Source: an uncultured delta proteobacterium
GTDB lineage: Bacteria > Desulfobacterota > Desulfomonilia > UBA1062
Assembly: GCA_963798485.1 (NCBI GenBank)
Contig: CAWCTR010000017.1
Span: 128,001 to 192,000, forward strand
Length of the DNA stretch: 64,000 nucleotides
Reading direction: 5' to 3'
Shown one piece after another: positions 23,125-37,096 of this stretch (the first letter of the stretch is position 1; the number at the start of each line of letters is the position of its first letter). Made by a program: the position numbers and the translations under genes. The notes under the pieces were generated by a model that made no database searches, was not told the DNA's origin, and worked only from the letters and a program-made list of their open reading frames with translations.

Positions 23125-24039
23125 ATGAACATACACCAGGTATACATCTTCAATATAACTGCGCGGACGTTGAGCATCACCAAGACCGCCAAGAAGATGC
23201 ACCTGTCGCAGCCGTCGGTGAGTATCCAGATTAAGGACCTTGAAGATTCGTTGAATGTCCGCCTCTTTGACCGGATTAACCGCAAGATCACCCTAACGGA
23301 TGCCGGGAAGACATTCTTTGAATACTCGGAAAGGCTCCTTCATCTGATCGATGAGATCAATGGCGTGATGAATGAATTCAGCTCCGGGGATGTCGGCAGA
23401 CTGGTGCTCGGCGCCGCCAACACCGTAGGGATCTATGTCCTGCCGAAGTTCCTGGGTGAGTTTAAAGAGCGTTACCCCAAGGCTGAAATCGCCCTGAATA
23501 TCCAGAATCGGCAGGAGGCAGTGGAACAGTGCGTGGCTGGCGAGCTCGATTTTGCCTTTATGCAGGACCCGCCCAAGCACCCCGACCTTCAGGCTGAATT
23601 CTTCATGAATGACGAGTTGGTCATTGTGTGTTCCCCCAAGCACCGCTGGGCGGAAATGGGTCACCTCACCATGAAGACGCTGTCTTCCGAGCCCTCGGCC
23701 ATCATTCTGAGGGAGGAAGGGTCCGGTACAAGGGGGATCATCGAGTATGTGATCAAGCGCTTTGGTATAGAGCGCAAGGTCACCATGGAACTGAGTTCGT
23801 CGGAAGGGATAAAGAGGGCGGTCGAGGCTAACCTTGGGGTGGCGGTGCTCTCCAGGAATGTCATCAAGAATGAAGTTGAAAACAAGACCCTCGTCGCGCT
23901 TCCCATAAAAGACCTGAACACTAAAAGGGAGTTCTTTATCGTAAGGAATAAGAAACGGAAATCCCTGCCTCTCATGATGAAGTTCTATGACTTCATCCTC
24001 GACAAGCGGGCTGCAATCGAAGATCCTGGTTCTAAGTAG
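23125..24039 (+). CDS. LysR-family transcriptional regulator (CysL/CbbR-like)
   Basis: HTH SITKTAKKMHLSQPSVSIQIKDLE, LTDAG, REEGSGTR. Confidence 0.95.
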   Translation: MNIHQVYIFNITARTLSITKTAKKMHLSQPSVSIQIKDLEDSLNVRLFDRINRKITLTDAGKTFFEYSERLLHLIDEINGVMNEFSSGDVGRLVLGAANTVGIYVLPKFLGEFKERYPKAEIALNIQNRQEAVEQCVAGELDFAFMQDPPKHPDLQAEFFMNDELVIVCSPKHRWAEMGHLTMKTLSSEPSAIILREEGSGTRGIIEYVIKRFGIERKVTMELSSSEGIKRAVEANLGVAVLSRNVIKNEVENKTLVALPIKDLNTKREFFIVRNKKRKSLPLMMKFYDFILDKRAAIEDPGSK

Positions 24040-24131
24040 CCTGTCTTTTCTTGACAGTTCTTGACAGCAAAAGATCAAGGATGATATGAATCACCATTCA
24101 GTTTTCGTTCAATTTCTTGACAGGAGTGAGT

Positions 24132-24680
24132 ATGCAGGAAATAAGGTTTCACGGGAGAGGCGGTCAGGGTGCGGTCACTTCGGCTGAGCTCATAGCCATA
24201 GCTGCGATCAACAAAGGCAACTGCGCGCAGGCTTTTCCAAGTTTCGGACCGGAGCGGCGTGGTGCGCCGGTCGTTGCATTCTGCAGGGTCGACGACAAGA
24301 AGATCAATATCAGGGCCAAGGTATATAACCCCGATGTGGTCATCGTGCTTGACCCGGGGCTGCTCACGCTCCTCGATCCGGCCGAAGGCCTGAAAGAGGG
24401 CGGCATTCTTCTCATCAACACAAAAAAGAGCCCGGATGAGATTGCAAAGCCGAATGTCGGCTACAAGGTCGCTACGGTGGATGCGAGCACGATCGCCATG
24501 GAAGAACTGGGGAGAGTGATTGTGAATACCACCATGGTCGGTGCATTCATAAAGGCAACGGGGCTCATCACCATCGAGGATATCAAGGGACCGCTCTTGG
24601 AGCGTTTTGGGGCGAAGCTCGGCGCCAGGAACATGAAGGCCCTGGAGCGCGCCTACAACGAGGTAGTGATCAAGGGGTAA
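24132..24680 (+). CDS. porC: Pyruvate/2-oxoacid:ferredoxin oxidoreductase gamma subunit
   Basis: EIRFHGRGGQGAVT, FPSFGPERRGAPV. Confidence 0.93.
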   Translation: MQEIRFHGRGGQGAVTSAELIAIAAINKGNCAQAFPSFGPERRGAPVVAFCRVDDKKINIRAKVYNPDVVIVLDPGLLTLLDPAEGLKEGGILLINTKKSPDEIAKPNVGYKVATVDASTIAMEELGRVIVNTTMVGAFIKATGLITIEDIKGPLLERFGAKLGARNMKALERAYNEVVIKG

Positions 24681-24684
24681 TGCC

Positions 24685-24978
24685 ATGGCAAAACCAATGG
24701 AGAAGATTACGTGGCAAGAATTAGAGACCGGTGCGGTTGTCGTTGAGATAGGGAATGCCCGGCAGTATGAGACGGGCTCCTGGCGTTCCGAACGGCCGAT
24801 TGTGGATAAGAGGCAGTGCATCAGGTGTGGAGTCTGCTGGCTGTTCTGCCCGGATATGAGCATCGTGAGGGCGTCAGAAGGTCATTTCGAGGCCAACCTC
24901 ACCTACTGCAAGGGGTGCGGCATCTGCGCCAAGGAATGTCCCGTGGGCTGCATCAAGATGGTCAGCGAGGAGGAGTGA
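24685..24978 (+). CDS. porD: Pyruvate/2-oxoacid:ferredoxin oxidoreductase delta subunit, 2x[4Fe-4S]
   Basis: TGSWRSERP, CIRCGVCWLFCP, YCKGCGICAKECP. Confidence 0.93.
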   Translation: MAKPMEKITWQELETGAVVVEIGNARQYETGSWRSERPIVDKRQCIRCGVCWLFCPDMSIVRASEGHFEANLTYCKGCGICAKECPVGCIKMVSEEE

Positions 24979-24981
24979 GAA

Positions 24982-26160
24982 ATGGGTAAGGTACGCAAAG
25001 GAATCGAGGTTTCCATCGCTATCGCCGACGCCGTCGCGCAGGCGGACGTGGACGTTATCGCCGCGTATCCCATCACACCGCAGACACATATCGTGGAGCA
25101 CCTTGCCGACATCGTGGCCGAGGGTGAGCTCGACGCCGAGTTCATCCCGGTGGACAGCGAACATTCAGCCATGAGCGTCTGCTGCGGATCAGCCGCCGTG
25201 GGCGCAAGGACATTCACCTCCACGAGCTCCCAGGGGCTCGCGCTCATGAGCGAGATCTTCTTTATAACCGCAGCCATGAGGTTGCCCGTCGTCATGGCGC
25301 TGGCTAACAGGTCGCTGTCCGGGCCCCTGTCCATCTGGAACGACCACACCGACGTCATGATGGTCCGCGATGCCGGCTGGATCCACCTCTTTACGGAAAA
25401 CGGCCAGGAGGCCTACGACAACACATTCTGCGCCTTTAGGATTTCGGAAGACCCCAAGGTCATGCTGCCGGTTGCCGTGAACTTTGACGGGTTCATCCTC
25501 ACGCACATGATCGAGCCTATAGAATACGAGGATGACGAGCTCATCAAGCAGTATCTGCCCAAGTATGAGATGAAGAATGCACTTCATCCGGACAAACCCG
25601 TATCCATGGGCTGCTTCGCAATGCCCGAGATCTACACCGAGGCCCAGATGAACAGGGAGCAGGGCGTAGTGAACTCGTATCCCCTTATCCTCAAGGCATG
25701 GGAAGAGTGGGGCAAGCTCACCGGCAGGCACTATAAGCCGGTAGAGACCTACCGGGCGGATGATGCGGAATACTGCATCGTCACCATGGGCTCCTACGGC
25801 GAGACGGCCGGTGAGGTGGTGGATGCGCTCCGCGAGAAAGGTGAGAAGGTGGGACTGGTGAAGATCCGTTTATGGAGGCCGTTCCCCTTCGAAGATTTCC
25901 GCAAGGCAGTGCTGGGGAAGAAATCTCTCATCGTGATCGACCGCGCCATCAGCTTCGGCGGGCCCGGCGGCCCTGTGGCGCTCGAGCTGCGCTCCGCTCT
26001 GTACAAGAAGAAGGGAGCACCGACAATCGTCAATTATATTGCCGGTCTTGCCGGTAGAGACGTTTCCCGGAAGGATTTCACGAACATCATCCTGGAAGGC
26101 AAGAAAAAGGCGGCATCCAGAAAAACAGACGGGTTCACCCTTTATGGGTTGAGAGGATAA
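24982..26160 (+). CDS. porA: Pyruvate/2-oxoacid:ferredoxin oxidoreductase alpha subunit
   Basis: AAYPITPQT, SEHSAMS, TSSQGLALM, NRS, DGFILTH. Confidence 0.94.
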   Translation: MGKVRKGIEVSIAIADAVAQADVDVIAAYPITPQTHIVEHLADIVAEGELDAEFIPVDSEHSAMSVCCGSAAVGARTFTSTSSQGLALMSEIFFITAAMRLPVVMALANRSLSGPLSIWNDHTDVMMVRDAGWIHLFTENGQEAYDNTFCAFRISEDPKVMLPVAVNFDGFILTHMIEPIEYEDDELIKQYLPKYEMKNALHPDKPVSMGCFAMPEIYTEAQMNREQGVVNSYPLILKAWEEWGKLTGRHYKPVETYRADDAEYCIVTMGSYGETAGEVVDALREKGEKVGLVKIRLWRPFPFEDFRKAVLGKKSLIVIDRAISFGGPGGPVALELRSALYKKKGAPTIVNYIAGLAGRDVSRKDFTNIILEGKKKAASRKTDGFTLYGLRG

Positions 26161-26170
26161 GGAGACGGGT

Positions 26171-27097
26171 ATGGATCGATTCTCGGTTTTTTCAGCGCGG
26201 CTTGTCGACAAGTCTGAGAATTTCACCTCGGGCCACAGAGCATGTCAGGGTTGTGCAGAGGCCCTGGCCGTGCGCCACGTGGTTAAAGCCCTGGGCCGGG
26301 ATACCATTATAGCTATGGCAACGGGCTGTATGGAGATCATCTCATCGCCGCTCCCCTTGACCTCATGGAAGCTGCCCTGGATTCACAACGCCTTTGAAAA
26401 CCCCGCTGCCGTTATCTCCGGCTGCGAGAGGGGTATGAAGGCCATGATGCGCAAGGGCAAACTGCCTCAAAAGAAGATCAACTTCGTAGCCATGGGCGGA
26501 GACGGTGCAACGGCCGACATCGGCATGGGATCGCTCTCCGGTGCGCTCGAGCGCGGACACGACATGCTCTATGTGTGCTATGACAACGAAGCCTACATGA
26601 ATACCGGTATACAGCGGTCGAGTTCCACACCGTTCGGAGCAAGCACCACCACAAGCCCTGCAGGCAAGAAGAGCATAGGTCAGACTACCCAGAAGAAGAA
26701 CATGCCGAAGATAGCCGTTGCGCACAACATTCCGTATGTGGCTACGGCATGCTCCAGCTTCCCCTTCGACCTCATGGAGAAGGTGAAGAAGGCTGCGGAG
26801 ACGCCAGGACCTGCCTATGTGCACGTACTCTCGGTATGCCCCACCGGGTGGAGGATACCGCCCGATGAAGCCATCAGATACGGAAGATTTGCGGTGGATT
26901 CATGCGTGTTCCCGCTGTACGAGGTTGTAAACGGCAAGTACAAGATCTCGTATGAGCCCAAGAAGATCATCGCCGTCAAGGAGTACCTGAGCGGCCAAGG
27001 CAGGTTCAGGCACCTGACGGACAATGAGATCGAGCAGATTCAGGAAGCAGTGACCAGAGACTATCAGAAGCTCGTGAAACTGAGTGAAGAGGAATAA
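26171..27097 (+). CDS. porB: Pyruvate/2-oxoacid:ferredoxin oxidoreductase beta subunit (TPP-binding)
   Basis: GHRACQGC, ATGC, GGDG...DNEAYMNTGIQRS, CPTGW. Confidence 0.94.
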   Translation: MDRFSVFSARLVDKSENFTSGHRACQGCAEALAVRHVVKALGRDTIIAMATGCMEIISSPLPLTSWKLPWIHNAFENPAAVISGCERGMKAMMRKGKLPQKKINFVAMGGDGATADIGMGSLSGALERGHDMLYVCYDNEAYMNTGIQRSSSTPFGASTTTSPAGKKSIGQTTQKKNMPKIAVAHNIPYVATACSSFPFDLMEKVKKAAETPGPAYVHVLSVCPTGWRIPPDEAIRYGRFAVDSCVFPLYEVVNGKYKISYEPKKIIAVKEYLSGQGRFRHLTDNEIEQIQEAVTRDYQKLVKLSEEE

Positions 27098-27099
27098 CC

Positions 27100-27558
27100 A
27101 TGGCTGTAGATATCAAAAAGGTAGACGAGATCATCTCCCGGTACGATAAATCAGAGGAATCGCTTCTGGCGATCATGCAGGACTTTCAGAGGGAGTTTCA
27201 CTACGTTCCTGAAGAAGGGATGAAGAGGCTCTCCGATTACCTGTATGTCCCCGAAAGCAAGATTTATGCGATGGGGACTTTCTACAGGGCCCTTTCGCTG
27301 GAGCCCAGAGGCAAATATACCGTCAAGGTCTGCATGGGTACTGCCTGCCACCTCAAAGGTTCCGGACAGATCATGGAGGTCATTGACCGGGAGTTGGATG
27401 TAACACGGAGCCATACTACCGTTGACCAGCGGTACACCATTGAGAGCGTGAACTGCCTGGGCGCATGCGCTATGGCCCCTGTAGTGGTGGTGGGAGAGGA
27501 TTATTACGGCCACATGAGACCCTCAAAGATCATGGATGTCCTTAACAAATACAAGTAG
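27100..27558 (+). CDS. NuoE/HydC-like [2Fe-2S] subunit
   Basis: VCMGTACHLKG and CLGACAMAPV; starts 2 nt after the porB stop. Confidence 0.92.
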   Translation: MAVDIKKVDEIISRYDKSEESLLAIMQDFQREFHYVPEEGMKRLSDYLYVPESKIYAMGTFYRALSLEPRGKYTVKVCMGTACHLKGSGQIMEVIDRELDVTRSHTTVDQRYTIESVNCLGACAMAPVVVVGEDYYGHMRPSKIMDVLNKYK

Positions 27559-27565
27559 AAGGTGA

Positions 27566-29428
27566 ATGCAGATGGAATCTATAAGGTCTTTCGAGCAGCT
27601 GGAACAGTATAGAGGGAGACTCAAGGCATCAGTGAACGCAGATCTCCCCACGGTCATGATTTGCTTCGGCACGGGCTGCCAGGCGAACGGCTCCCGCGAA
27701 GTGGCCGATGCCTTTGCCGAGGAGATCAAGCAGCAAGGGCTCAAGGTGAATGTGGAAATCGGGCTCAAAACCACCGGTTGCCATGGATACTGCGAGAATG
27801 GTCCGCTGGTTGCGCTTCGTCCGAGCGATATCCTCTATCTGAGGGTGGCTCCTAAAGATGTCCCCGAGATCGTGGAAAAAAGCATCAAGAACAATGAGGT
27901 CATTGAGCGGCTCGTCTATACGGATGTGAACACCAAAGAGAAGATCGCCCAGTACCAGAGCATACCCTTCTATAAATTCCAGAAGCGCATAGCACTTAGG
28001 AATATCGGGCATATCGACCCGACATCCATCGACGATTACCTGCTCTCTGATGGATATAAGGGTCTTTCCAAGGCACTCACCATGGACTCGGAGGCCATCA
28101 TAAAGGAAGTCGAGGCCTCGGGTCTGAGGGGGCGCGGAGGCGGAGGGTTCCCCACGGGCACCAAATGGCGCTCCTGCAAGGCCGTAGAATCTGATGTCCG
28201 CTATGTCATGTGCAACGGCGACGAGGGCGACCCGGGTGCATTCATGGACCGTTCCATCATGGAAGGCGATCCGCATTCCGTGCTGGAGGGTATGATCATC
28301 GGCGGGTATGCAGTAGGCGCACATATGGGTTACATCTACGTGCGCGATGAATACCCCCTTGCCGTGAAAAACCTTCAGGGTGCACTCCAGGAAGCCAGGA
28401 AAGCAGGCTTCATCGGGAAGGACATCCTGGGATCGGGCTTTGATTTTGATATAAAGATCAGCAGGGGCGGAGGCGCGTTCGTCTGCGGTGAGTCTTCGGC
28501 GCTTATGAGATCGCTGGAAGGCAAGGTGGGCGAGCCCAGGGCAAAATACATCCGCTCTGTTGAAAAAGGTCTCTATGACAAACCCTCCGTGCTCAACAAC
28601 GTGGAAACCTGGAACAATGTTCCGGTGATCATGTTGAACGGCGCCGATTGGTATGCAGGGTTCGGCACCAAAGGCTCCAAGGGGACGAAGGTATTCTCCC
28701 TGGTGGGCAAGGTGAACAACACCGGCTTGGTGGAGGTGCCAATGGGCATCACCATCAAAGAGCTCGTAGAGAAGATCGGCGGCGGGGTACTGGGCGGCAA
28801 AGGATTCAAGGCCGTGCAGACCGGCGGACCATCCGGCGGATGCATCCCGAAGAAGCTCTCGGACCTTCCTATAGACTTTGACAGCCTTACCGAGGTCGGG
28901 TCCATGATGGGCTCCGGCGGTATTATCGTCATGGACGAAGACACCTGCATGGTGGATGTGGCCAAGTATTTCATTCACTTCCTTGTAGAGGAGTCGTGCG
29001 GAAAGTGTACGCCCTGCAGGGACGGGCTGCCCAGGATGCTGAGCATCCTCACCGCCATTACAGAAGGAAAAGGCAAAGAAGGCGACATAGAGGCCCTTAA
29101 AGAACTCTGCGATGTACTCAGTTACGGAGCCCTGTGCGGATTGGGGACTTCGGCGGCGAACCCGGTGCTCTCTACCATCAAGTATTTCGAGGACGAGTAT
29201 ATTGCCCATATCAAAGACAAGAAATGTCCTGCCGGTGTATGCAAGAAACTGATCACCTACCGGATCGACAAGGAAGCATGCACGGGATGCACGCTGTGTG
29301 CGAAAAAGTGCCCCCAGGAATGCATCATGGGCGAGCGCAAACTGGCGCATATTATTGATGAGAGCCAGTGCATCAGGTGCGGCGTATGCAAAGACGTCTG
29401 TAACTTCAATGCTGTCAGGATCGAATAG
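27566..29428 (+). CDS. NuoF/HydB-like FMN- and NADH-binding subunit with N-terminal [2Fe-2S] and C-terminal 2x[4Fe-4S]
   Basis: [64 protein letters not shown]. Confidence 0.94.
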
Positions 29429-29437
29429 GAAGCTGCC

Positions 29438-30166
29438 ATGGAAAACGTCAAAATCATCATAAACGGACGAGAGGTCGAAGCTGTCAAGGATCAGAGCGTT
29501 CTGGACGTAGCGAGGGAGAACGGTATTCATATACCTGCCCTGTGCTATCATCCTGAAGTTACCTCGAGCGGCGGCTCCTGCCGTGTATGCCTCGTGGAGG
29601 CTCATCAGGGCGGGAAGATGAGGCTCGTCACCTCCTGCAATTACCCGGTGAGGAAAGGGCTTGAGATAAAGACCGATACGGACCTCGTGAAAAGGATTCG
29701 CAAAGGCGTGCTTGAACTCCTGCTTTCGAGGGTTCCGGACTCCGACGTGATCAAGAATATGGCCCTGAAAGACGGCATTACCCAGCCCCGGTTTTTCACG
29801 GATGAAGGTGAGGAGAACCGCTACAAGTGCATCTCATGCGGGCTCTGTGCGGCTGTATGCGAAGAGGTGGTGGGAGTCAGTGCCATTTCCATGCTGAACA
29901 GGAGCCGCGACAAGGCGCCTGGAACACCCTATAATAAACCGAGCACTACCTGCATCGGATGTGGTGCGTGCGCATATGCCTGTCCCACTAAGGCCATCTC
30001 CATGAGAGACAAGGATGATACCAGGAGGATCTGGGGAAAGCAGTTCACCATGATCAAGTGCAGTGTGTGCGGCATGCCGTATATCCCCGATGCGCAGGTG
30101 GATTGGATCGTCAAGACTACAGGCAAGGACAGGGCGTTCTTCGATAAATGTCCCGACCATCGGTAA
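29438..30166 (+). CDS. Short NuoG/HydA N-terminal-like Fe-S subunit without catalytic domain
   Basis: [2Fe-2S] IPALC...CRVCLV...SC, two [4Fe-4S] motifs, C-terminal CSVC...CPDH; only 242 aa with no H-cluster or molybdopterin domain. Confidence 0.88.
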   Translation: MENVKIIINGREVEAVKDQSVLDVARENGIHIPALCYHPEVTSSGGSCRVCLVEAHQGGKMRLVTSCNYPVRKGLEIKTDTDLVKRIRKGVLELLLSRVPDSDVIKNMALKDGITQPRFFTDEGEENRYKCISCGLCAAVCEEVVGVSAISMLNRSRDKAPGTPYNKPSTTCIGCGACAYACPTKAISMRDKDDTRRIWGKQFTMIKCSVCGMPYIPDAQVDWIVKTTGKDRAFFDKCPDHR

Positions 30167-31821: not shown

Positions 31822-31887
31822 AGTACAGTGTCGCGAGCAAGCACATGTAATTTATTATGGGTTAGGTCTAAGGGGACAAGGGAGACC

Positions 31888-33864
31888 ATGGAAAATAAGG
31901 AGCTCATCATCTTCCGAAGGATTAATGAGGCCATTTCCCTTGCCCCTGATGTCGAGGCTGTGGCCCGGTCTATCCTGGACATCGTTATTGACGATACCCC
32001 GGCGGAGAATGCCTCTATCATGATGCCCACGTCCGACAACTTAAGGCTTGAGATCAAGGCCGCCAAGGGGAGGAAAGATAAAAGAAGCCGTTATTCGGAA
32101 GAATCGCTCGGCCAGGTATTCTCCATCGGGGAGGGTATTGCGGGTGTGGCGGCGCTCGGCGGCAAGCCCATCATCATCCACGATACTTCAAAGGATGAAA
32201 GGTTCCAGGCCAGGGACAGCAAGATCAATATCGGGTCCATCCTAAGCCTACCCCTCATTTACAACAAGGACGAGCTTGTGGGTGTTCTCAATCTGAGTCA
32301 TCCAAAGGCCTTTGCCTTTGAAGACGAGGATCTCCATCTGATCTCCATACTGCTCTCTCCAGCAGCCCTGGCGCTCAGGAATGCCAAGCTTATGAGGGAG
32401 GTGGAAGAGATCAATAGAATGCTCAAAGCCGAGCTTTCCATGACAGACAAGGCCATGCTGGAATTCGGTAAGAGCATTCTCAAGGTATTCAACTGGATGT
32501 CAATGGGGGTGCTCACCACGGATACAAAGGGCATCATCACCACCATGAACAAGCGGGCGTCCGAGATGATCGGAAAAAGGGCGGGAGAGAGCCTGGCCGA
32601 TATTGTCGGCGATACGGTTATACAGAAGATCGTATCCGACAAGGAGGGGGCTACGCTTGATGTTGAGGCCAAGGGAAAGATCTTCAGTTTTGACCTTTCA
32701 CCCTTGCCGCTGAAACCGTCCTGGCAGGTGGTGGCATGTATCAGGGACGTAACGCTCGAGCGGTTTAAAGAGAAAGAGCTCGTTCGTGTCAAGGACCAAT
32801 ACAAGGACATGGTGGAAAAGGCTATTGACGCCGTCTACATCATCAAGAACGGGCGCTTCCTGCTCGTAAACAGAAAGTTCCAGGAGATGCTCGGCTATGA
32901 GCCCGATGAGATCCTGAATAAACATTTCAGGCGCATCGTTGCAAAAGAATCCATCCATGCATTGGCTGATGCGCTCAGGTCACAGAAGGGAAATATATTT
33001 GTGCCAAACCTCGAACTCCAGGCCATACGCAAGGATGGCCAGAGGGTCTATCTTGAGATTTCTATCGGAAGGCTGATGATAGAAGACGATGAGTGTTATG
33101 TAGGGGTAGTCCGCGATATCTCCAGCAAAAAAGAATTGCTCACTTTAAAGACCAGGTTCCTGAATGTAGCCTCCCACGAGATACGTGTGCCTTTAACCGT
33201 GATCAGGGGGTACGGAAGGATGCTGGCCCGCGATAAGGAGTGCGTCCTTAGTGATGGACAGAAAGAGTGCGTTGATGAGATCGAGAAGCAGTGTGAGAAA
33301 CTGCTTCTCTTTTCCAACTCTTTGCTGGATTTTGCAAAGATCCATTCCGAGAAGTTCGTCCTGAATCGGGAGAAGGTCGCTGTCGGTGACTATATTCAAA
33401 GGATAGTCAGGAACATGCAGATCGGCATCCGCGACAAGAAAATAACCATAACCTTCGAGGATACAGGCGGCATTGACACCTTATTCATAGACCCCATCCG
33501 GTTTGAGCAGGCCCTCACGAACCTCATTGATAATGCCGTAAAGCACTCCCCTGAGGCATCCGAGGTAACGGTAAGCATCGGTAAGGCAAAATCCGATAGC
33601 GAGGCACTGAGGATGTTTCTGAACCAGGAGTGCGCCGTTATCTCAGTGCGTGATCAGGGGCCGGGCATCAGGGCCGATGAGGCCAGGGAACTTTTCAGCG
33701 ATTTTTTTGTGGGCGCAAGCGGTAGGGCCAAAGGAGGCATAGGGCTCGGGCTTGCCATTACCAAGGAGATCGTACATGCCCATGGCGGCCAGGTGGAGGC
33801 CAGGGCATCGGATTCGGGTGGATATTTTGTAATCACAATACCCTTGAAGTTGCAGGATTATTAA
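31888..33864 (+). CDS. Cytoplasmic GAF-PAS-PAS sensor histidine kinase
   Basis: GAF (GEGIAG), PAS (RKDG), H-box SHEIRVPLT, NLIDNAVKHS, DQGPGI, GLGLAI. Confidence 0.92.
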   Translation: MENKELIIFRRINEAISLAPDVEAVARSILDIVIDDTPAENASIMMPTSDNLRLEIKAAKGRKDKRSRYSEESLGQVFSIGEGIAGVAALGGKPIIIHDTSKDERFQARDSKINIGSILSLPLIYNKDELVGVLNLSHPKAFAFEDEDLHLISILLSPAALALRNAKLMREVEEINRMLKAELSMTDKAMLEFGKSILKVFNWMSMGVLTTDTKGIITTMNKRASEMIGKRAGESLADIVGDTVIQKIVSDKEGATLDVEAKGKIFSFDLSPLPLKPSWQVVACIRDVTLERFKEKELVRVKDQYKDMVEKAIDAVYIIKNGRFLLVNRKFQEMLGYEPDEILNKHFRRIVAKESIHALADALRSQKGNIFVPNLELQAIRKDGQRVYLEISIGRLMIEDDECYVGVVRDISSKKELLTLKTRFLNVASHEIRVPLTVIRGYGRMLARDKECVLSDGQKECVDEIEKQCEKLLLFSNSLLDFAKIHSEKFVLNREKVAVGDYIQRIVRNMQIGIRDKKITITFEDTGGIDTLFIDPIRFEQALTNLIDNAVKHSPEASEVTVSIGKAKSDSEALRMFLNQECAVISVRDQGPGIRADEARELFSDFFVGASGRAKGGIGLGLAITKEIVHAHGGQVEARASDSGGYFVITIPLKLQDY

Positions 33865-33900
33865 TGTATTTTGTATCTTGCGATATATAGGGCAAGAATA

Positions 33901-35322
33901 ATGATGAGAGAAAATATCAGGATACTGGTTGTTGATGATGACGAGAGCATACGGAGGTACATCGTCAAGCTGCTTACCCAGGGTGGGTATGATGTCTATG
34001 CGGTTCCAAGCGGCAAAGACGCACTGAAGGAACTGAGGGCAGGCCAGGAATTCTCGCTGGCCATCCTTGATATCCTCATGCCCGACATGGACGGACTGGA
34101 GACGCTCGGTGAAATCAGGAAGATATCCAAGGACCTTCCAATCCTCATGCTTTCCGCCTTGGGGCAGACCACCATTATCGTGAAGGCCATGAAGGCGGGT
34201 GCAACCGATTATCTGGTGAAGCCCTTTGAAGAAGAGGAACTCGAACTTGCCATCACCAAATCCCTGGAAAAGAGAAGGCTGCTCTCCGAGATAACGAGTC
34301 TGAGAAAACAGCTCCGCGTGGATGAGCTCAAGGGCGATTTCATCTATAACAGCCCCAAGATGCAGAAGGTGAAGGACCTCACGGACCAGGTGGCCGAGAC
34401 GGATGTGAGCGTGCTTATCGAGGGTGAGAGCGGCACCGGCAAAGAGCTCGTAGCGCGGGCGCTCCACTACAAATCGCGGTTGAAGGACAAACCCTTTATA
34501 AAGGTCAACTGCGCTGCCTTGCCCCATGAACTCCTGGAGTCGGAACTCTTCGGCTACGAGCGGGGCGCCTTTACCGGGGCATACCGGTCCAAACCCGGCA
34601 AATTCGAGCTTGCCAACAACGGGACGATCTTTCTTGATGAGATAGGCGAAATGGACCTCAGCATCCAGTCCAAACTCCTGCAGGTGCTCCAGGAAGGCAC
34701 CTTTTCACGCCTCGGCGGCAAACAGGACGTTCAGGTGAATGTCCGCATAATAACCGCCACAAACAGAGACTTGAAGAAGGCCATCGAGCAGGGGACCTTC
34801 CGGGAGGACATCTATTATAGACTGAATGTCGTGAGCATTCACATCCCCCCCCTGACCGAAAGGAGAGAGGATATCACCTATCTGTTTGAGTATTTTCTGG
34901 ACACCTACAATGAGAAGTATGGGAAGAACATCCAGGTCAACAAGGAGGACATGTATCCCATGCTGATAGCCTACCAATGGCCGGGAAATGTAAGAGAGCT
35001 GAAGAATCAGGTCAAACGGCTCGTGATCTTGGGAAATATCGAAGAGATGGTCCTTTATTTGAAGGGCGGAAGCAGTATTATTGTGGAGAAGAGGTCTCAG
35101 GATGTCAAGGACCGGGTTCTTGAGATGATTACCCCTAATGATCCGGACGAGATAGTACCGCTCAAGCTTGCAGCCAAGGAGGCAACGGTCAAGGCCGAGA
35201 GGGACATGATCTTGAAGGCGCTGCGTGGAACGAACTGGAACAAAAAGAAGGCGGCCAATCTCCTCCAGGTGAGTTATAAGGCGCTCCTATACAAGATCAA
35301 AGAATGCGGGATCGAGAAATGA
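33901..35322 (+). CDS. Sigma54-dependent response regulator (NtrC family)
   Basis: Intact [37 protein letters not shown]. Confidence 0.94.
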   Translation: MMRENIRILVVDDDESIRRYIVKLLTQGGYDVYAVPSGKDALKELRAGQEFSLAILDILMPDMDGLETLGEIRKISKDLPILMLSALGQTTIIVKAMKAGATDYLVKPFEEEELELAITKSLEKRRLLSEITSLRKQLRVDELKGDFIYNSPKMQKVKDLTDQVAETDVSVLIEGESGTGKELVARALHYKSRLKDKPFIKVNCAALPHELLESELFGYERGAFTGAYRSKPGKFELANNGTIFLDEIGEMDLSIQSKLLQVLQEGTFSRLGGKQDVQVNVRIITATNRDLKKAIEQGTFREDIYYRLNVVSIHIPPLTERREDITYLFEYFLDTYNEKYGKNIQVNKEDMYPMLIAYQWPGNVRELKNQVKRLVILGNIEEMVLYLKGGSSIIVEKRSQDVKDRVLEMITPNDPDEIVPLKLAAKEATVKAERDMILKALRGTNWNKKKAANLLQVSYKALLYKIKECGIEK

Positions 35323-35336
35323 AAAGGGGGCTGGCG

Positions 35337-35879
35337 ATGAAAAGGCACCTATGGTGTCTGCTTTTGTATATGCTGATGCCTTTGAGTATGACTGCCCAGG
35401 AATCGAGCTACCTTATCGGGGAATCGGATCTGCTGGAGATATCGGTCTGGGGTGAGCAAAATCTTTCGAGACAGGTAACAGTGAGGACTGATGGTTTTAT
35501 ATCTTTACCGCTTATCGGTGACATCGAGGCTGCCGGGAAGACACCGCCGAAACTGAAATCCGACCTTGAAGCCGGGCTATCGAAATACATCAAGGATCCA
35601 CGATGCGCAGTAATTGTCTTAGAGCCCCGGAGCAAGAGATACTATGTCCAGGGAGAGGTTACCCGTCCCGGTCAGTATACTCTTGATCAACAGCTCTCCC
35701 TTACCCAGATCATCCCCATTGCCGGAGGATTCACCCAGTTTGCCGATAAGGGGTCCATTGTCATTATCCGTATCGAGGGGGAGAAGAAGATAAGGATGGA
35801 AGTCAATTATAAAAAAATACTCAAGGGTAAGAACGAGGACGTCCCCATCAAGCCGGGAGATACCATTATAGTCCCGTGA
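35337..35879 (+). CDS. Short periplasmic OPX (Wza-family) polysaccharide export protein
   Basis: Poly_export motif YLIGESDLLEISVW...DGFISLPLIG, SLBB domain ending PGDTIIVP; no lipobox and no C-terminal outer-membrane helix. Confidence 0.88.
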   Translation: MKRHLWCLLLYMLMPLSMTAQESSYLIGESDLLEISVWGEQNLSRQVTVRTDGFISLPLIGDIEAAGKTPPKLKSDLEAGLSKYIKDPRCAVIVLEPRSKRYYVQGEVTRPGQYTLDQQLSLTQIIPIAGGFTQFADKGSIVIIRIEGEKKIRMEVNYKKILKGKNEDVPIKPGDTIIVP

Positions 35880-37096
35880 GGAAGCATGCGCTCCTTGGTA
35901 TCCTTGGCTTGGTTTGCGTCCTGTTGTCAGGACATGATCTTCTGGCCTTTACCTTTGAGGCCCATCCAGGCCTCTATACATCCTATGAATATACGGATAA
36001 CTACCGGGGGACTGTGCAAAATGAGCAGGGTGATAGTATCTATTATATAGGGCCGAGCCTGGGATTAACGTGCACGTCTCCCTCTACGAACTTTGACCTC
36101 ACCGGAAGGTATACCAAGGGTTTTCACTATAGGTTTTCCGAGGACGACAGTCCTGATATAAACCTTATAACACATGCCTCTTTCACAGCACCGCGACAGG
36201 AAACCAGGTTTTCCTATGAGTTTGACCAGACATTGACACGGGAAAGCCTGAACGAGCCCTTTGGCGAGGTAAAGCGAAACATCGGGAGCATCGGCTACAC
36301 TGACGCGCTGACCCAAAATACAAGCATTAGTGCGGGGGGAAATATCCTGACAGAAAAATGGAATAGTGCTGCAGTAGGTGCGCAGGACTTGTTAAACTCG
36401 GGCGGAAATGTAGGTATCACCCATCAATTGAATCCCCTGGACACAATCTCTTTTACGGCGCGGAGAGATTATTACTGCTATGAGATCAACCAGGATGTCA
36501 TAGAAACGAAAGGTACGATGGATATCAAGCATGTTTTATCACCGGTTTTCAGTCTCGGCCTTGGCACTGTCTACAACCATGACGACAGGGGGCATGACCC
36601 CAGTGATGACCGTTATGATGCCAACCTGACGGGGCAATACAAAATGAATCAGTCCACAATGATGAGTGTTACAGGTGGCTACAGCTGGCTTATCATGGAG
36701 CGGCAGGATCGCCAAGCATCCTATATTACGAGCGTATCCCTTGACAAAAGCCTGAAGGAAGACCAATTCCATTTGAGTATTGCAAAGGGATATACTACAG
36801 AATTTACTACCAACTTCTATGGCACCTATGATACTAAAAGTGCTTCGCTCTCCTGGGTAAAACAGTGGGCGCACACATGGTCTTCTTCTACAGGTATTAC
36901 GATTTCTGAGCAAAAACCCACAAAGGGAACAGCAGGCGAGGATGAGACGGATTCCAACGCAAATATCTTGCTTACCTGGAAACCCATTGAATATTTCACA
37001 GGGGACCTTAAATATGAACATCTTCAGACAAAATATAGGACTTCAGGCACAGTACAGGAAAACCGATATACAATGGCAATAGAGGTGAGATATTGA
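35876..37096 (+). CDS. Outer-membrane beta-barrel associated with polysaccharide export
   Basis: Signal peptide, alternating aromatic-rich strands, YTDN motif, C-terminal ENRYTMAIEVRY; coupled to OPX and PCP genes. Confidence 0.75.
   Translation: MRKHALLGILGLVCVLLSGHDLLAFTFEAHPGLYTSYEYTDNYRGTVQNEQGDSIYYIGPSLGLTCTSPSTNFDLTGRYTKGFHYRFSEDDSPDINLITHASFTAPRQETRFSYEFDQTLTRESLNEPFGEVKRNIGSIGYTDALTQNTSISAGGNILTEKWNSAAVGAQDLLNSGGNVGITHQLNPLDTISFTARRDYYCYEINQDVIETKGTMDIKHVLSPVFSLGLGTVYNHDDRGHDPSDDRYDANLTGQYKMNQSTMMSVTGGYSWLIMERQDRQASYITSVSLDKSLKEDQFHLSIAKGYTTEFTTNFYGTYDTKSASLSWVKQWAHTWSSSTGITISEQKPTKGTAGEDETDSNANILLTWKPIEYFTGDLKYEHLQTKYRTSGTVQENRYTMAIEVRY

Follow-up and report, generated by a model that had tools for sequence, protein, structure and literature searches.

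Sequence analysis of a conserved porCDAB-bfuCBA operon, a member of the predicted Por-Bfu class, in an uncultured deltaproteobacterium

A 64,000-nucleotide stretch from the genome of an uncultured deltaproteobacterium (GenBank assembly GCA_963798485.1, contig CAWCTR010000017.1, positions 128,001 to 192,000; hereafter the window) carries seven plus-strand open reading frames (ORFs), porC-porD-porA-porB-bfuC-bfuB-bfuA, which span positions 24132-30166 according to the ORF list and its translations. An earlier note on this DNA, made from the letters alone, had described a 2-oxoacid:ferredoxin oxidoreductase (POR) and three NuoE/F/G-like genes in one run with gaps of 2-10 nucleotides (nt). The ORF coordinates agree with this description, the gaps from porC to bfuA being 4, 3, 10, 2, 7 and 9 nt. 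The seven genes probably encode a single Por-Bfu enzyme, a member of the Type 2 BfuABC group in which POR is the catalytic partner of the Bfu module.

The first four genes, on the plus strand as are all features of the operon, encode the subunits of a four-subunit POR: porC (24132..24680), the gamma subunit (Pfam POR, 1.6e-41); porD (24685..24978), the delta subunit with a 4Fe-4S dicluster (TIGR02179, 97 bits against a cut-off of 60); porA (24982..26160), the alpha subunit with POR_N and PFOR_II domains (Pfam, 1.8e-72 and 5.6e-28); and porB (26171..27097), the thiamine pyrophosphate (TPP)-binding beta subunit with a TPP_enzyme_C domain. The start assigned to porC is an ATG with GGAG 8 nt upstream, the longest possible ORF beginning at a TTG at 24117. 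Among the NCBIfam models, PRK08534.1 (pyruvate ferredoxin oxidoreductase gamma) matches PorC with 235.1 bits, above its cut-off of 225, and PRK11865.1 (pyruvate synthase PorB) matches PorB with 416.7 bits, above its cut-off of 405; PorA scores 467.6 bits against PorA_Arch, below the cut-off of 550, and PorD scores 108.2 bits against its subunit-specific equivalog, below 120. These matches make pyruvate the most probable substrate. An identity as the NADH-dependent phenylglyoxylate dehydrogenase PadEFGHI was considered as well and rejected, its NCBIfam models scoring 178, 81, 325 and 245 against cut-offs of 300, 150, 700 and 700, respectively.

The cofactor sites of the POR are complete. PorB has the ligands of a proximal [4Fe-4S] cluster (C25, C28, C53 and C223) and the TPP motif GDG at residues 110-112, and PorD has those of two [4Fe-4S] clusters (C45/48/51/55 and C75/78/81/85), whose cysteines are invariant across the 22 Por-Bfu PorD sequences aligned. 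PorD is predicted to be the electron exit of the POR and the docking subunit for BfuA. With its full set of four subunits and of cluster and TPP motifs, the window enzyme resembles an ordinary four-subunit PorABCD (pyruvate:ferredoxin oxidoreductase, PFOR, or pyruvate synthase). It differs in that the operon runs on into bfuCBA, and in that PorD and the PorB N-terminus have residues that are altered where bfu has been lost. Four POR_N proteins are encoded in the genome, none of them a PFOR of about 1170 amino acids (aa), and the nearest POR paralogue has an alpha subunit only 36% identical to that of the window and falls below all cut-offs.

Downstream of porB, bfuC (27100..27558) encodes a NuoE/HydC-like protein (Pfam 2Fe-2S_thioredx, 1.3e-46) whose translation contains the ligands of the [2Fe-2S] cluster C1 (C78, C83, C119 and C123). 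The NuoF/HydB-like bfuB (27566..29428; 620 aa) was assigned by Pfam, ligand conservation and its match to 9mqx_B. Its Pfam domains are, in order, 2Fe-2S_thioredx (residues 29-105), Complex1_51K (1e-44), SLBB, NADH_4Fe-4S (7.8e-32) and two Fer4 (566-616). The cysteines of the N-terminal [2Fe-2S] cluster (C33/38/72/76) and of the C-terminal clusters (C572-582 and C602-612) are present, and in an alignment of 126 BfuB homologues both the Cys3His site (C461/H548/C554/C559) and the ligands of the B1 [4Fe-4S] cluster (C478/C481/C484/C524) are 100% invariant. An additional N-terminal [2Fe-2S] cluster, the Cys3His site and a C-terminal [4Fe-4S] pair are the elements that distinguish bifurcating BfuB from non-bifurcating NuoF homologues (PMC9304861). 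The full architecture of bifurcating HydB/BfuB proteins, which the earlier note had ascribed to this subunit, was borne out, all five of the motifs it named being found in the translation. The C-terminal [4Fe-4S] pair is predicted to be the ferredoxin site, and the NuoF domain the site for flavin mononucleotide (FMN) and NAD(H).

The last gene, bfuA (29438..30166), was assigned by Pfam, alignments and matches to 9mqx_A as a 242-aa A subunit of the Type 2 ('headless') kind. It comprises a Fer2_4 domain and two 4Fe-4S motifs, with ligands for one [2Fe-2S] cluster (C36/48/51/67) and two [4Fe-4S] clusters (C131/134/137/141 and C172/175/178/182). Pfam gave no match to NADH-G_4Fe-4S_3 (PF10588, the His-ligated cluster), to an H-cluster domain or to a molybdopterin domain, in agreement with the earlier note; PF10588 is present in other proteins of the same genome, namely HydA, FdhA and a NuoG-like protein on contig C14 (see below). 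At the C-terminus is a Zn-finger-type motif, CxxC...CxxH (C208, C211, C238 and H241), which aligned partly to the Zn finger of WorA; in orthologue alignments, conservation is 90% or higher at C208, C211 and C238, and either H or C occupies position 241. By sequence, BfuA matches WorA (9mqx_A) over residues 4-220 with an E-value of 6.5e-44. An AlphaFold2 model built with 22 orthologues (mean predicted local distance difference test score 85; 91-96 at the C-terminal end) also has 9mqx_A as its best fold match (E 1.1e-21, template modelling score 0.46).

The BfuABC family was defined by Schut et al. 2022 (PMC9304861), who named the arrangement of four POR subunits with BfuABC Por-Bfu and predicted it to be a Type 2 BfuABC, in which BfuA keeps only the A1, A2 and A4 clusters. 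In that survey, Por-Bfu makes up 12 of 1558 BfuB sequences (clades 35, 44 and 45), is uncharacterised, and rests additionally on one expression data set; an example is Dehalococcoides mccartyi 195, and the role proposed is pyruvate oxidation, or pyruvate synthesis from NADH and reduced ferredoxin. According to a 2025 paper on the WorABCSL structure (PMC12318220), the Por-Bfu A subunit has a WorA-type Zn finger and no C-terminal adaptor helix. In the window, the four por genes are contiguous with bfuABC, and BfuA lacks the His-ligated A3 and A5. By its gene content and sequence motifs the operon is a member, and a well-conserved one, of the predicted Por-Bfu class. It shares with the published descriptions cited here the four POR subunits beside BfuABC, the BfuA with A1, A2 and A4 only, and the Zn finger without a helix, and differs from them in nothing of kind; 'headless' is just the definition of a Type 2 BfuA. 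The earlier note had suspected that such pairings were already predicted in Bfu surveys and knew of no biochemistry. The class was indeed named in 2022, and literature searches found no biochemical study of Por-Bfu; the term Por-Bfu itself turned up only in the two papers cited above.

The closest solved relatives of the window BfuB and BfuA belong to Wor-Bfu, the WorABCSL complex of Acetomicrobium mobile (9MQX), which likewise has a headless Zn-finger A subunit; BfuB matches WorB (9mqx_B) over residues 11-617 with an E-value of 1.3e-244. In Wor-Bfu, low-potential electrons enter A4 from an external ferredoxin-like subunit, whose donor cluster lies 10.7 Å from A4, and then follow the path A4-A2-A1-B1, and bifurcation to NAD+ and ferredoxin has been shown (PMC12318220). 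The corresponding dicluster subunit of the POR is PorD. The two systems differ in the partner, which in Wor-Bfu is a tungsten aldehyde oxidoreductase with a polyferredoxin nanowire and not a TPP enzyme, and in docking: WorA docks by a C-terminal alpha-helix, whereas the window BfuA stops at residue 242, one residue past H241, so that a Wor-type adaptor helix is impossible. The HydABC [FeFe] hydrogenases of T. maritima and T. kivui (7P5H, 8A6T) have the same BfuBC-core cofactors (E 1.6e-230 to 8a6t_B), but their Type 1 HydA holds a His-ligated cluster and the H-cluster, which the window BfuA does not.

A search for conserved synteny of por and nuoEFG-like genes, as the earlier note had proposed, found the order porCDAB-bfuCBA in 25 further loci from genome, family and metagenome scans. 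In the genome collection, 6 of 80 BfuB-relative loci (52-68% identity) have this order (L009, L010, L011, L014, L015 and L019). Two others were treated as different or incidental associations and left out of the count: L061, in which bfuCBA precedes porCDAB, the POR is highly divergent and the BfuA is of Bam type (204 aa), and L071, with a 31-33% identical 2-oxoacid:ferredoxin oxidoreductase on the opposite strand. Within the family, 10/10 genomes of other genera and 2/14 other genomes of the same genus encode a full-length BfuA orthologue (67-87% identity), against 0/16 genomes of the sister family. The order is also kept in every one of the 12 family BfuA loci fetched (10 complete; 2 truncated by contig ends, with the order intact up to the break), one of them identical to the L009 contig, and in 8 of 80 loci (6 complete, 2 cut) from a metagenome scan with the BfuA alignment. 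The porB-bfuC gap, with a median of 1 nt and a range of -8 to 84 (n = 24 loci), is no looser than the gaps within por or within bfu. Record titles of the carriers include Deltaproteobacteria, Syntrophales and Dehalococcoidia metagenome-assembled genomes. In the Dehalococcoidia locus L015 (4380-5264), porC and porD lie in one 294-aa frame, a gamma-delta fusion.

A co-regulated operon would also account for this tight synteny if it encoded two separate, co-expressed enzymes, a ferredoxin-dependent POR and a soluble BfuABC ferredoxin:NAD+ oxidoreductase, linked by diffusible ferredoxin. We consider this rather unlikely, although it would fit a BfuA without the Wor-type helix and is favoured by the occurrence of the POR orthologue without Bfu in the genus itself. 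A POR_N search detected 393/394-aa PorA orthologues in nine congeneric genomes that have neither BfuA nor the 620-aa BfuB. In all six of the congeners fetched, LysR-porCDAB-ffh is found at the orthologous locus, with PorA 81-86% identical and bfuCBA cleanly absent. The POR thus works alone in these organisms, and Bfu coupling is optional. In a PorA+PorB+PorC tree, the six non-carriers form one clade (100/100) beside three carriers within the genus (99/99). Carrier genera of the family surround the genus in turn, a topology that indicates a single loss of bfuCBA. The por locus is itself labile in the genus: the POR_N search found no 393-aa PorA in congeners G002 and G012, and in congener G007 (C3:280529-281089) a strong POR_N match (E 3e-65) is broken by 4 TGA stops, possibly a decaying porA.

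The residues that changed after the loss argue against two independent enzymes, since they cluster in PorD and at the PorB N-terminus instead of being evenly spread. A column was scored as a fixed difference if 12 carriers, drawn from 11 genera, conserved it at 90% or more and the six non-carriers were fixed for a different residue. Such differences number 7 in 97 columns of PorD (7.2 per 100; A25S, G49M, V50F, F54Y, D57E, G88K and E97K), 10 in 307 of PorB (3.3 per 100; six in residues 2-19, including F4T, F7S, R10K and L11N), 2 in 181 of PorC (1.1 per 100) and 2 in 392 of PorA (0.5 per 100), and the flanking LysR and Ffh have none in 232 and 395 columns, respectively. The PorD changes fall at the acidic C-terminus and inside the first cluster motif, which we take to ligate the distal, electron-exit cluster in PFOR, and none of the 22 aligned Por-Bfu PorD sequences departs from G49. 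Together, PorD and the PorB N-terminus would form the surface on which BfuA docks. A similar N-terminal aromatic-RL pattern is seen in PorB-GltD fusions, so the PorB arm may not be specific to Bfu; the genome's own PorB paralogue does not show it.

The histories of the individual genes also bear on whether BfuA belongs to the POR. BfuB trees were built from 126 rows (FastTree) and from 59 chosen representatives (IQ-TREE, LG+G4), and both scatter the Por-linked BfuB among cores with other partners, identified by Pfam as WorS/WorL (L130, L144), carbon monoxide dehydrogenase/acetyl-CoA synthase (CODH/ACS; L022, L040), FlpD/FrhB (L143), and a Bam-like set of an HdrA-like protein and enoyl-CoA hydratase (L026). 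A single origin of Por-linked BfuB was rejected, as forcing the 17 rows into one clade costs 307.65 units of log-likelihood (approximately unbiased test, p = 3e-12). The BfuB of the window's family form a starred clade of Por-linked rows only, which groups (96-97, starred) with Wor- (L130, L144), CODH- and FlpD/FrhB-linked BfuB, a partner make-up that would fit the published clade 45. The phylogenetic placement that the earlier note had called for puts this BfuB among Type 2 Bfu cores, beside Wor-linked ones, and its best solved relative is WorB of 9MQX.

In the BfuA tree, by comparison, 17 of the 19 Por-linked BfuA fall in one 25-row group next to Wor-type BfuA (support 85, unstarred); the remaining rows are L139, an archaeal F420-type row and six contigs whose shortness precludes a judgement, and the two Por-linked BfuA outside it are those of L014 and L061. 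Gene-by-gene trees, covering 18-20 loci, agree on L010+L136 for PorA, PorB, PorC, BfuA and BfuC, and on L011+L123+L139 for PorA, PorB and BfuA (L011+L123 for BfuC). The BfuB tree instead joins L010+L011 and L123+L137. By this pattern of agreement and discordance, BfuA and, largely, BfuC have been inherited with the POR while BfuB was exchanged. The BfuB of L010 and L011 are longer (638-642 aa) and group with a CODH-linked core, and BfuB was apparently replaced inside these otherwise co-inherited Por-Bfu operons (compared with L136 and L123).

A further variant is found in the metagenome locus L139 (2803-8571), where porCDAB is followed by a 634-aa protein with NADH_4Fe-4S, Fer4_20 and Pyr_redox_2 domains and no FMN domain, and by a 235-aa BfuA-like gene. 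Here BfuC and BfuB have been replaced by a GltD-like protein and, to judge from its domains, the POR is wired to a GltD-type NAD(P)H module via the same BfuA-like adaptor. A BfuA whose phylogeny follows the POR genes and not its own BfuB, and which in L139 stays with the POR though BfuBC is replaced, speaks against two enzymes joined by free ferredoxin, and is what would be expected if BfuA is a POR-specific adaptor.

Fusion proteins can be read in both directions. The two-enzyme alternative gains from the finding that none of 103 longer BfuA homologues is a BfuA-POR fusion, the fusion partners among them being FrhB, polyferredoxin, AFOR, GltD-like, H-cluster and molybdopterin domains. It loses from one-chain fusions of a BfuA-like 2Fe-2S domain with PorB. 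The best 120 longer PorB homologues include about 30 clusters of PorB-GltD fusions of 775-808 aa, with a C-terminal GltD-like module and a PorB 57-67% identical to that of the window (P0106-P0137, P0104/P0105/P0107 and others), and five clusters of 1049-1065 aa (P0153/P0163/P0170/P0179/P0216) that contain Fer2_4, GltD-like domains, [4Fe-4S] motifs and PorB. In the two long clusters checked by Pfam, the order is Fer2_4, Fer4_20, Pyr_redox_2, [4Fe-4S] motifs and PorB, and the Fer2_4 domain shares 47% identity with residues 4-97 of BfuA. These domain arrangements show that one polypeptide can combine a POR beta subunit with a 2Fe-2S scaffold of BfuA type. These GltD/Nfn-type fusions resemble the window operon in wiring a POR beta subunit to an NAD(P)H flavoprotein. 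They differ in that the link is covalent, in that a GltD-like FAD module replaces or supplements the separate headless BfuA, and in belonging to other lineages (PorB 46-67% identical to window PorB). Separately, many archaeal PorB were seen to carry inteins (Intein_splicing/LAGLIDADG). A last point against two separate enzymes is that no characterised Bfu enzyme is known to use NAD and ferredoxin alone (PMC9304861).

The genome (4.3 Mb in 32 contigs, 97.5% complete, 7% contamination) was also examined for other candidate partners of the Bfu module. It has only two NuoF homologues, the window BfuB and a 1013-aa HydB fusion in a HydABC-type [FeFe] hydrogenase locus (C2:27226-32961; locus L089, 5226-10961, minus strand). 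In this fusion, the NuoF core is followed by Fer4_20 and Pyr_redox_2 (GltD/NfnB-like) domains in place of the usual C-terminal ferredoxin dicluster, and beside it are HydA (585 aa), HydC, a TM1266-like regulator and radical-SAM maturases; the 1013-aa frame is found in most congeners. Two further [FeFe] hydrogenases are a large/small-subunit type with cytochrome b and a sensor type that includes a SpoIIE phosphatase. As the sole NuoEF-type [FeFe] hydrogenase has its own HydB and HydC, it does not call for the Bfu module. That bfuCBA is a detached N-module of complex I was rejected: NuoD (PF00346) gave nothing above cut-off in the genome, while it was detected in 11 of 14 control genomes, so that complex I is absent, and the 242-aa BfuA lacks the NuoG C-terminal domain. 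CODH/ACS is present in the genome.

Two NuoG-like modules in the genome have no NuoEF of their own. One is a selenocysteine-containing FdhA with an in-frame TGA and a NuoG-like N-terminus (C30:107693-110386; locus L093, 7693-10386), followed downstream by a tungstate/molybdate-type ABC transporter and FmdE. The other is a trio on the minus strand (C14:273690-277329; locus L095, 11690-15329) of a 553-aa NuoG-like protein and the small and large NiFe subunits. The NuoG-like protein has 2Fe-2S, His-ligated-cluster, two [4Fe-4S] and Molybdop_Fe4S4 domains, no molybdopterin domain and no NuoE/F nearby, and the trio looks, from its domains, like an orphan 'ASL' hydrogenase module. Since only two NuoF homologues are available, BfuBC might mainly serve this FdhA or this trio, with its adjacency to por incidental, but we regard this as very improbable. 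The operon has its own A subunit, its linkage to por is conserved in 25 loci, and four congeners (G002, G003, G005 and G009) retain the FdhA frame and the HydB fusion on a shared contig, about 10 kb apart in three of them, with that fusion as their only NuoF homologue, so that FdhA is independent of the Por-linked core. A hydrogenase or formate dehydrogenase elsewhere as the true partner of the NADH module, which the earlier note had named as an outcome that would overturn its proposal, is not what was found for the [FeFe] hydrogenase and FdhA: HydA has its own HydB and HydC, and FdhA is retained in genomes without the Por-linked core. The note's central suggestion that POR itself is the catalytic partner gains support from the synteny, from BfuA tracking the POR, from the Wor-Bfu precedent, and from a NuoEF-type hydrogenase with its own flavoprotein and the absence of complex I.

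Directly 5' of the operon is a gene for a LysR-family protein (23125..24039, plus strand; best NCBIfam LysR model 230 bits against a cut-off of 250), by its context a possible regulator. It is kept 5' of porC in six bfu-carrying family loci (five full or nearly so, and a fragment at the locus edge in L112) and in 6/6 Bfu-less congeners. The intergenic leader (24040..24131, plus strand) contains, by direct reading, a promoter-like site with TTGACA, a spacer and a TGATATGAAT-type -10 that continues into the inverted repeat TGAATCACCATTCA. TTGACA is found 58-73 nt 5' of the porC ATG in 14 of 15 related loci, whether or not they carry bfu, and the conserved inverted repeat TGAATCACCATTCA after it could be an operator. 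The 92-nt spacer from LysR to porC contains TCTTGACAG three times without mismatch (24049-24123), and these are the only copies in the 64-kb window, where 0.58 would be expected; relatives hold one copy of the TTGACA core. A generic promoter and terminator scan performed at chance level (4 promoter-like sites against 5.6 expected, 7 terminator-like against 6.2) and missed the leader site. The porB-bfuC gap is too short for a promoter. Contigs from one sediment metatranscriptome library, derived from relatives 91-98% identical, span five of the six junctions, porB-bfuC among them (records 17, 18, 20, 21 and 23); in RNA run X20, the bin 23800-24023 is without cover, which is no evidence of a transcript start. 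Separate transcripts, which would have counted against the proposal of the earlier note, were not seen: there is a single conserved promoter-like site 5' of porC, and the bridging RNA contigs, though weak evidence, point the same way.

For a single Por-Bfu enzyme, we infer a physical complex of seven subunits, obligate coupling to two acceptors, and bifurcation as follows. PorABCD would decarboxylate pyruvate with CoA at the TPP site, and the electrons would pass from the proximal cluster of PorB to the two clusters of PorD. They would then enter the outer [4Fe-4S] cluster A4 of BfuA rather than free ferredoxin, and travel A4-A2-A1 to the [B1-FMN-C1] site of BfuBC. At this site, NAD+ would take up one share of them at the FMN and ferredoxin the other at the C-terminal cluster pair of BfuB; the reaction would be reversible and might run in either direction in vivo. 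With the potentials listed in Table 1 of PMC9304861 (pyruvate E0' about -500 mV, NAD E' about -280 mV, ferredoxin E' about -500 mV), pyruvate oxidation releases more free energy when the electrons are divided between NAD+ and ferredoxin than when ferredoxin alone is reduced. The split would sustain oxidation at low pyruvate and a high ratio of reduced to oxidized ferredoxin, and the reverse reaction would spare reduced ferredoxin but need high acetyl-CoA and CO2. The same complex might also be a non-bifurcating, NAD+-dependent POR, functionally like PadEFGHI, as NAD-linked 2-oxoacid oxidoreductases exist as an NCBIfam family and pyruvate is reducing enough for the direct reduction of NAD+ (Table 1, PMC9304861). 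This is quite unlikely: BfuB retains all the elements that separate bifurcating homologues, including the C-terminal dicluster and the N-terminal 2Fe-2S (PMC9304861), Wor-Bfu requires both acceptors with an equally low-potential donor (PMC9304861), and the Pad models are far under their cut-offs.

Several points weigh against a Por-Bfu enzyme that acts as one bifurcating unit. With an orthologous POR, as judged by sequence, present without Bfu genes in six congeners, the coupling is not obligatory for the POR, and the adaptor helix by which the A subunit docks in Wor-Bfu (PMC12318220) is missing from the C-terminus of BfuA. No BfuA-POR fusion occurs among the 103 homologues, the fixed-difference signal is that of one loss event in one clade, and the two NuoG-like modules without their own NuoEF do exist elsewhere in the genome. 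The RNA-library contigs prove neither a single transcript nor transcription. In addition, pyruvate at about -500 mV could reduce NAD+ or ferredoxin directly, which makes the benefit of bifurcation questionable (PMC9304861). The POR alone in congeners also fits an optional, tunable add-on, and for the Por-Bfu enzyme bfuCBA would be such an add-on, lost once in the genus.

The carrier/non-carrier contrast, the discordance between BfuA and BfuB and the L139 variant are additions to the published Por-Bfu prediction. Tentatively, and with less confidence than in the single enzyme itself, we hypothesize that bfuCBA is a detachable cassette that turns a ferredoxin-only POR into an enzyme coupled to both NAD+ and ferredoxin, with BfuA as the plug that coevolves with the POR, BfuB cores that are swapped, and a loss that marks the docking surface. 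If so, PorD G49M, V50F, G88K and E97K and the remodelled N-terminal arm of PorB (F4, F7, R10 and L11) mark the docking site, giving a residue-level map of how a Type 2 Bfu recruits its partner without a Wor-type adaptor helix. Carriers and clean non-carriers in one genus, with changes focused on PorD and PorB, offer concrete residues to test. In anaerobes near the thermodynamic limit, the Wood-Ljungdahl pathway is connected to biosynthesis through the interconversion of pyruvate and acetyl-CoA. A cell whose POR is hard-wired to a bifurcating core would set the yield of NADH to reduced ferredoxin, or the cost of pyruvate synthesis, without relying on Rnf or Nfn.

The genes that flank the operon are, by annotation, unrelated housekeeping and regulatory genes. 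Upstream are the LysR regulator and genes for SmrA-like, HolB and EF-G proteins, and downstream are those for Ffh, a histidine kinase, a sigma-54 regulator and polysaccharide export. No hydrogenase, formate dehydrogenase or Nuo gene is among these neighbours as annotated with Pfam and NCBIfam, as the earlier reading of the letters had it. The region 3' of ffh (31828-37096) encodes a GAF-PAS histidine kinase, a sigma-54 response regulator and a polysaccharide export system associated with PEP-CTERM/exosortase, and is unrelated to Por-Bfu.

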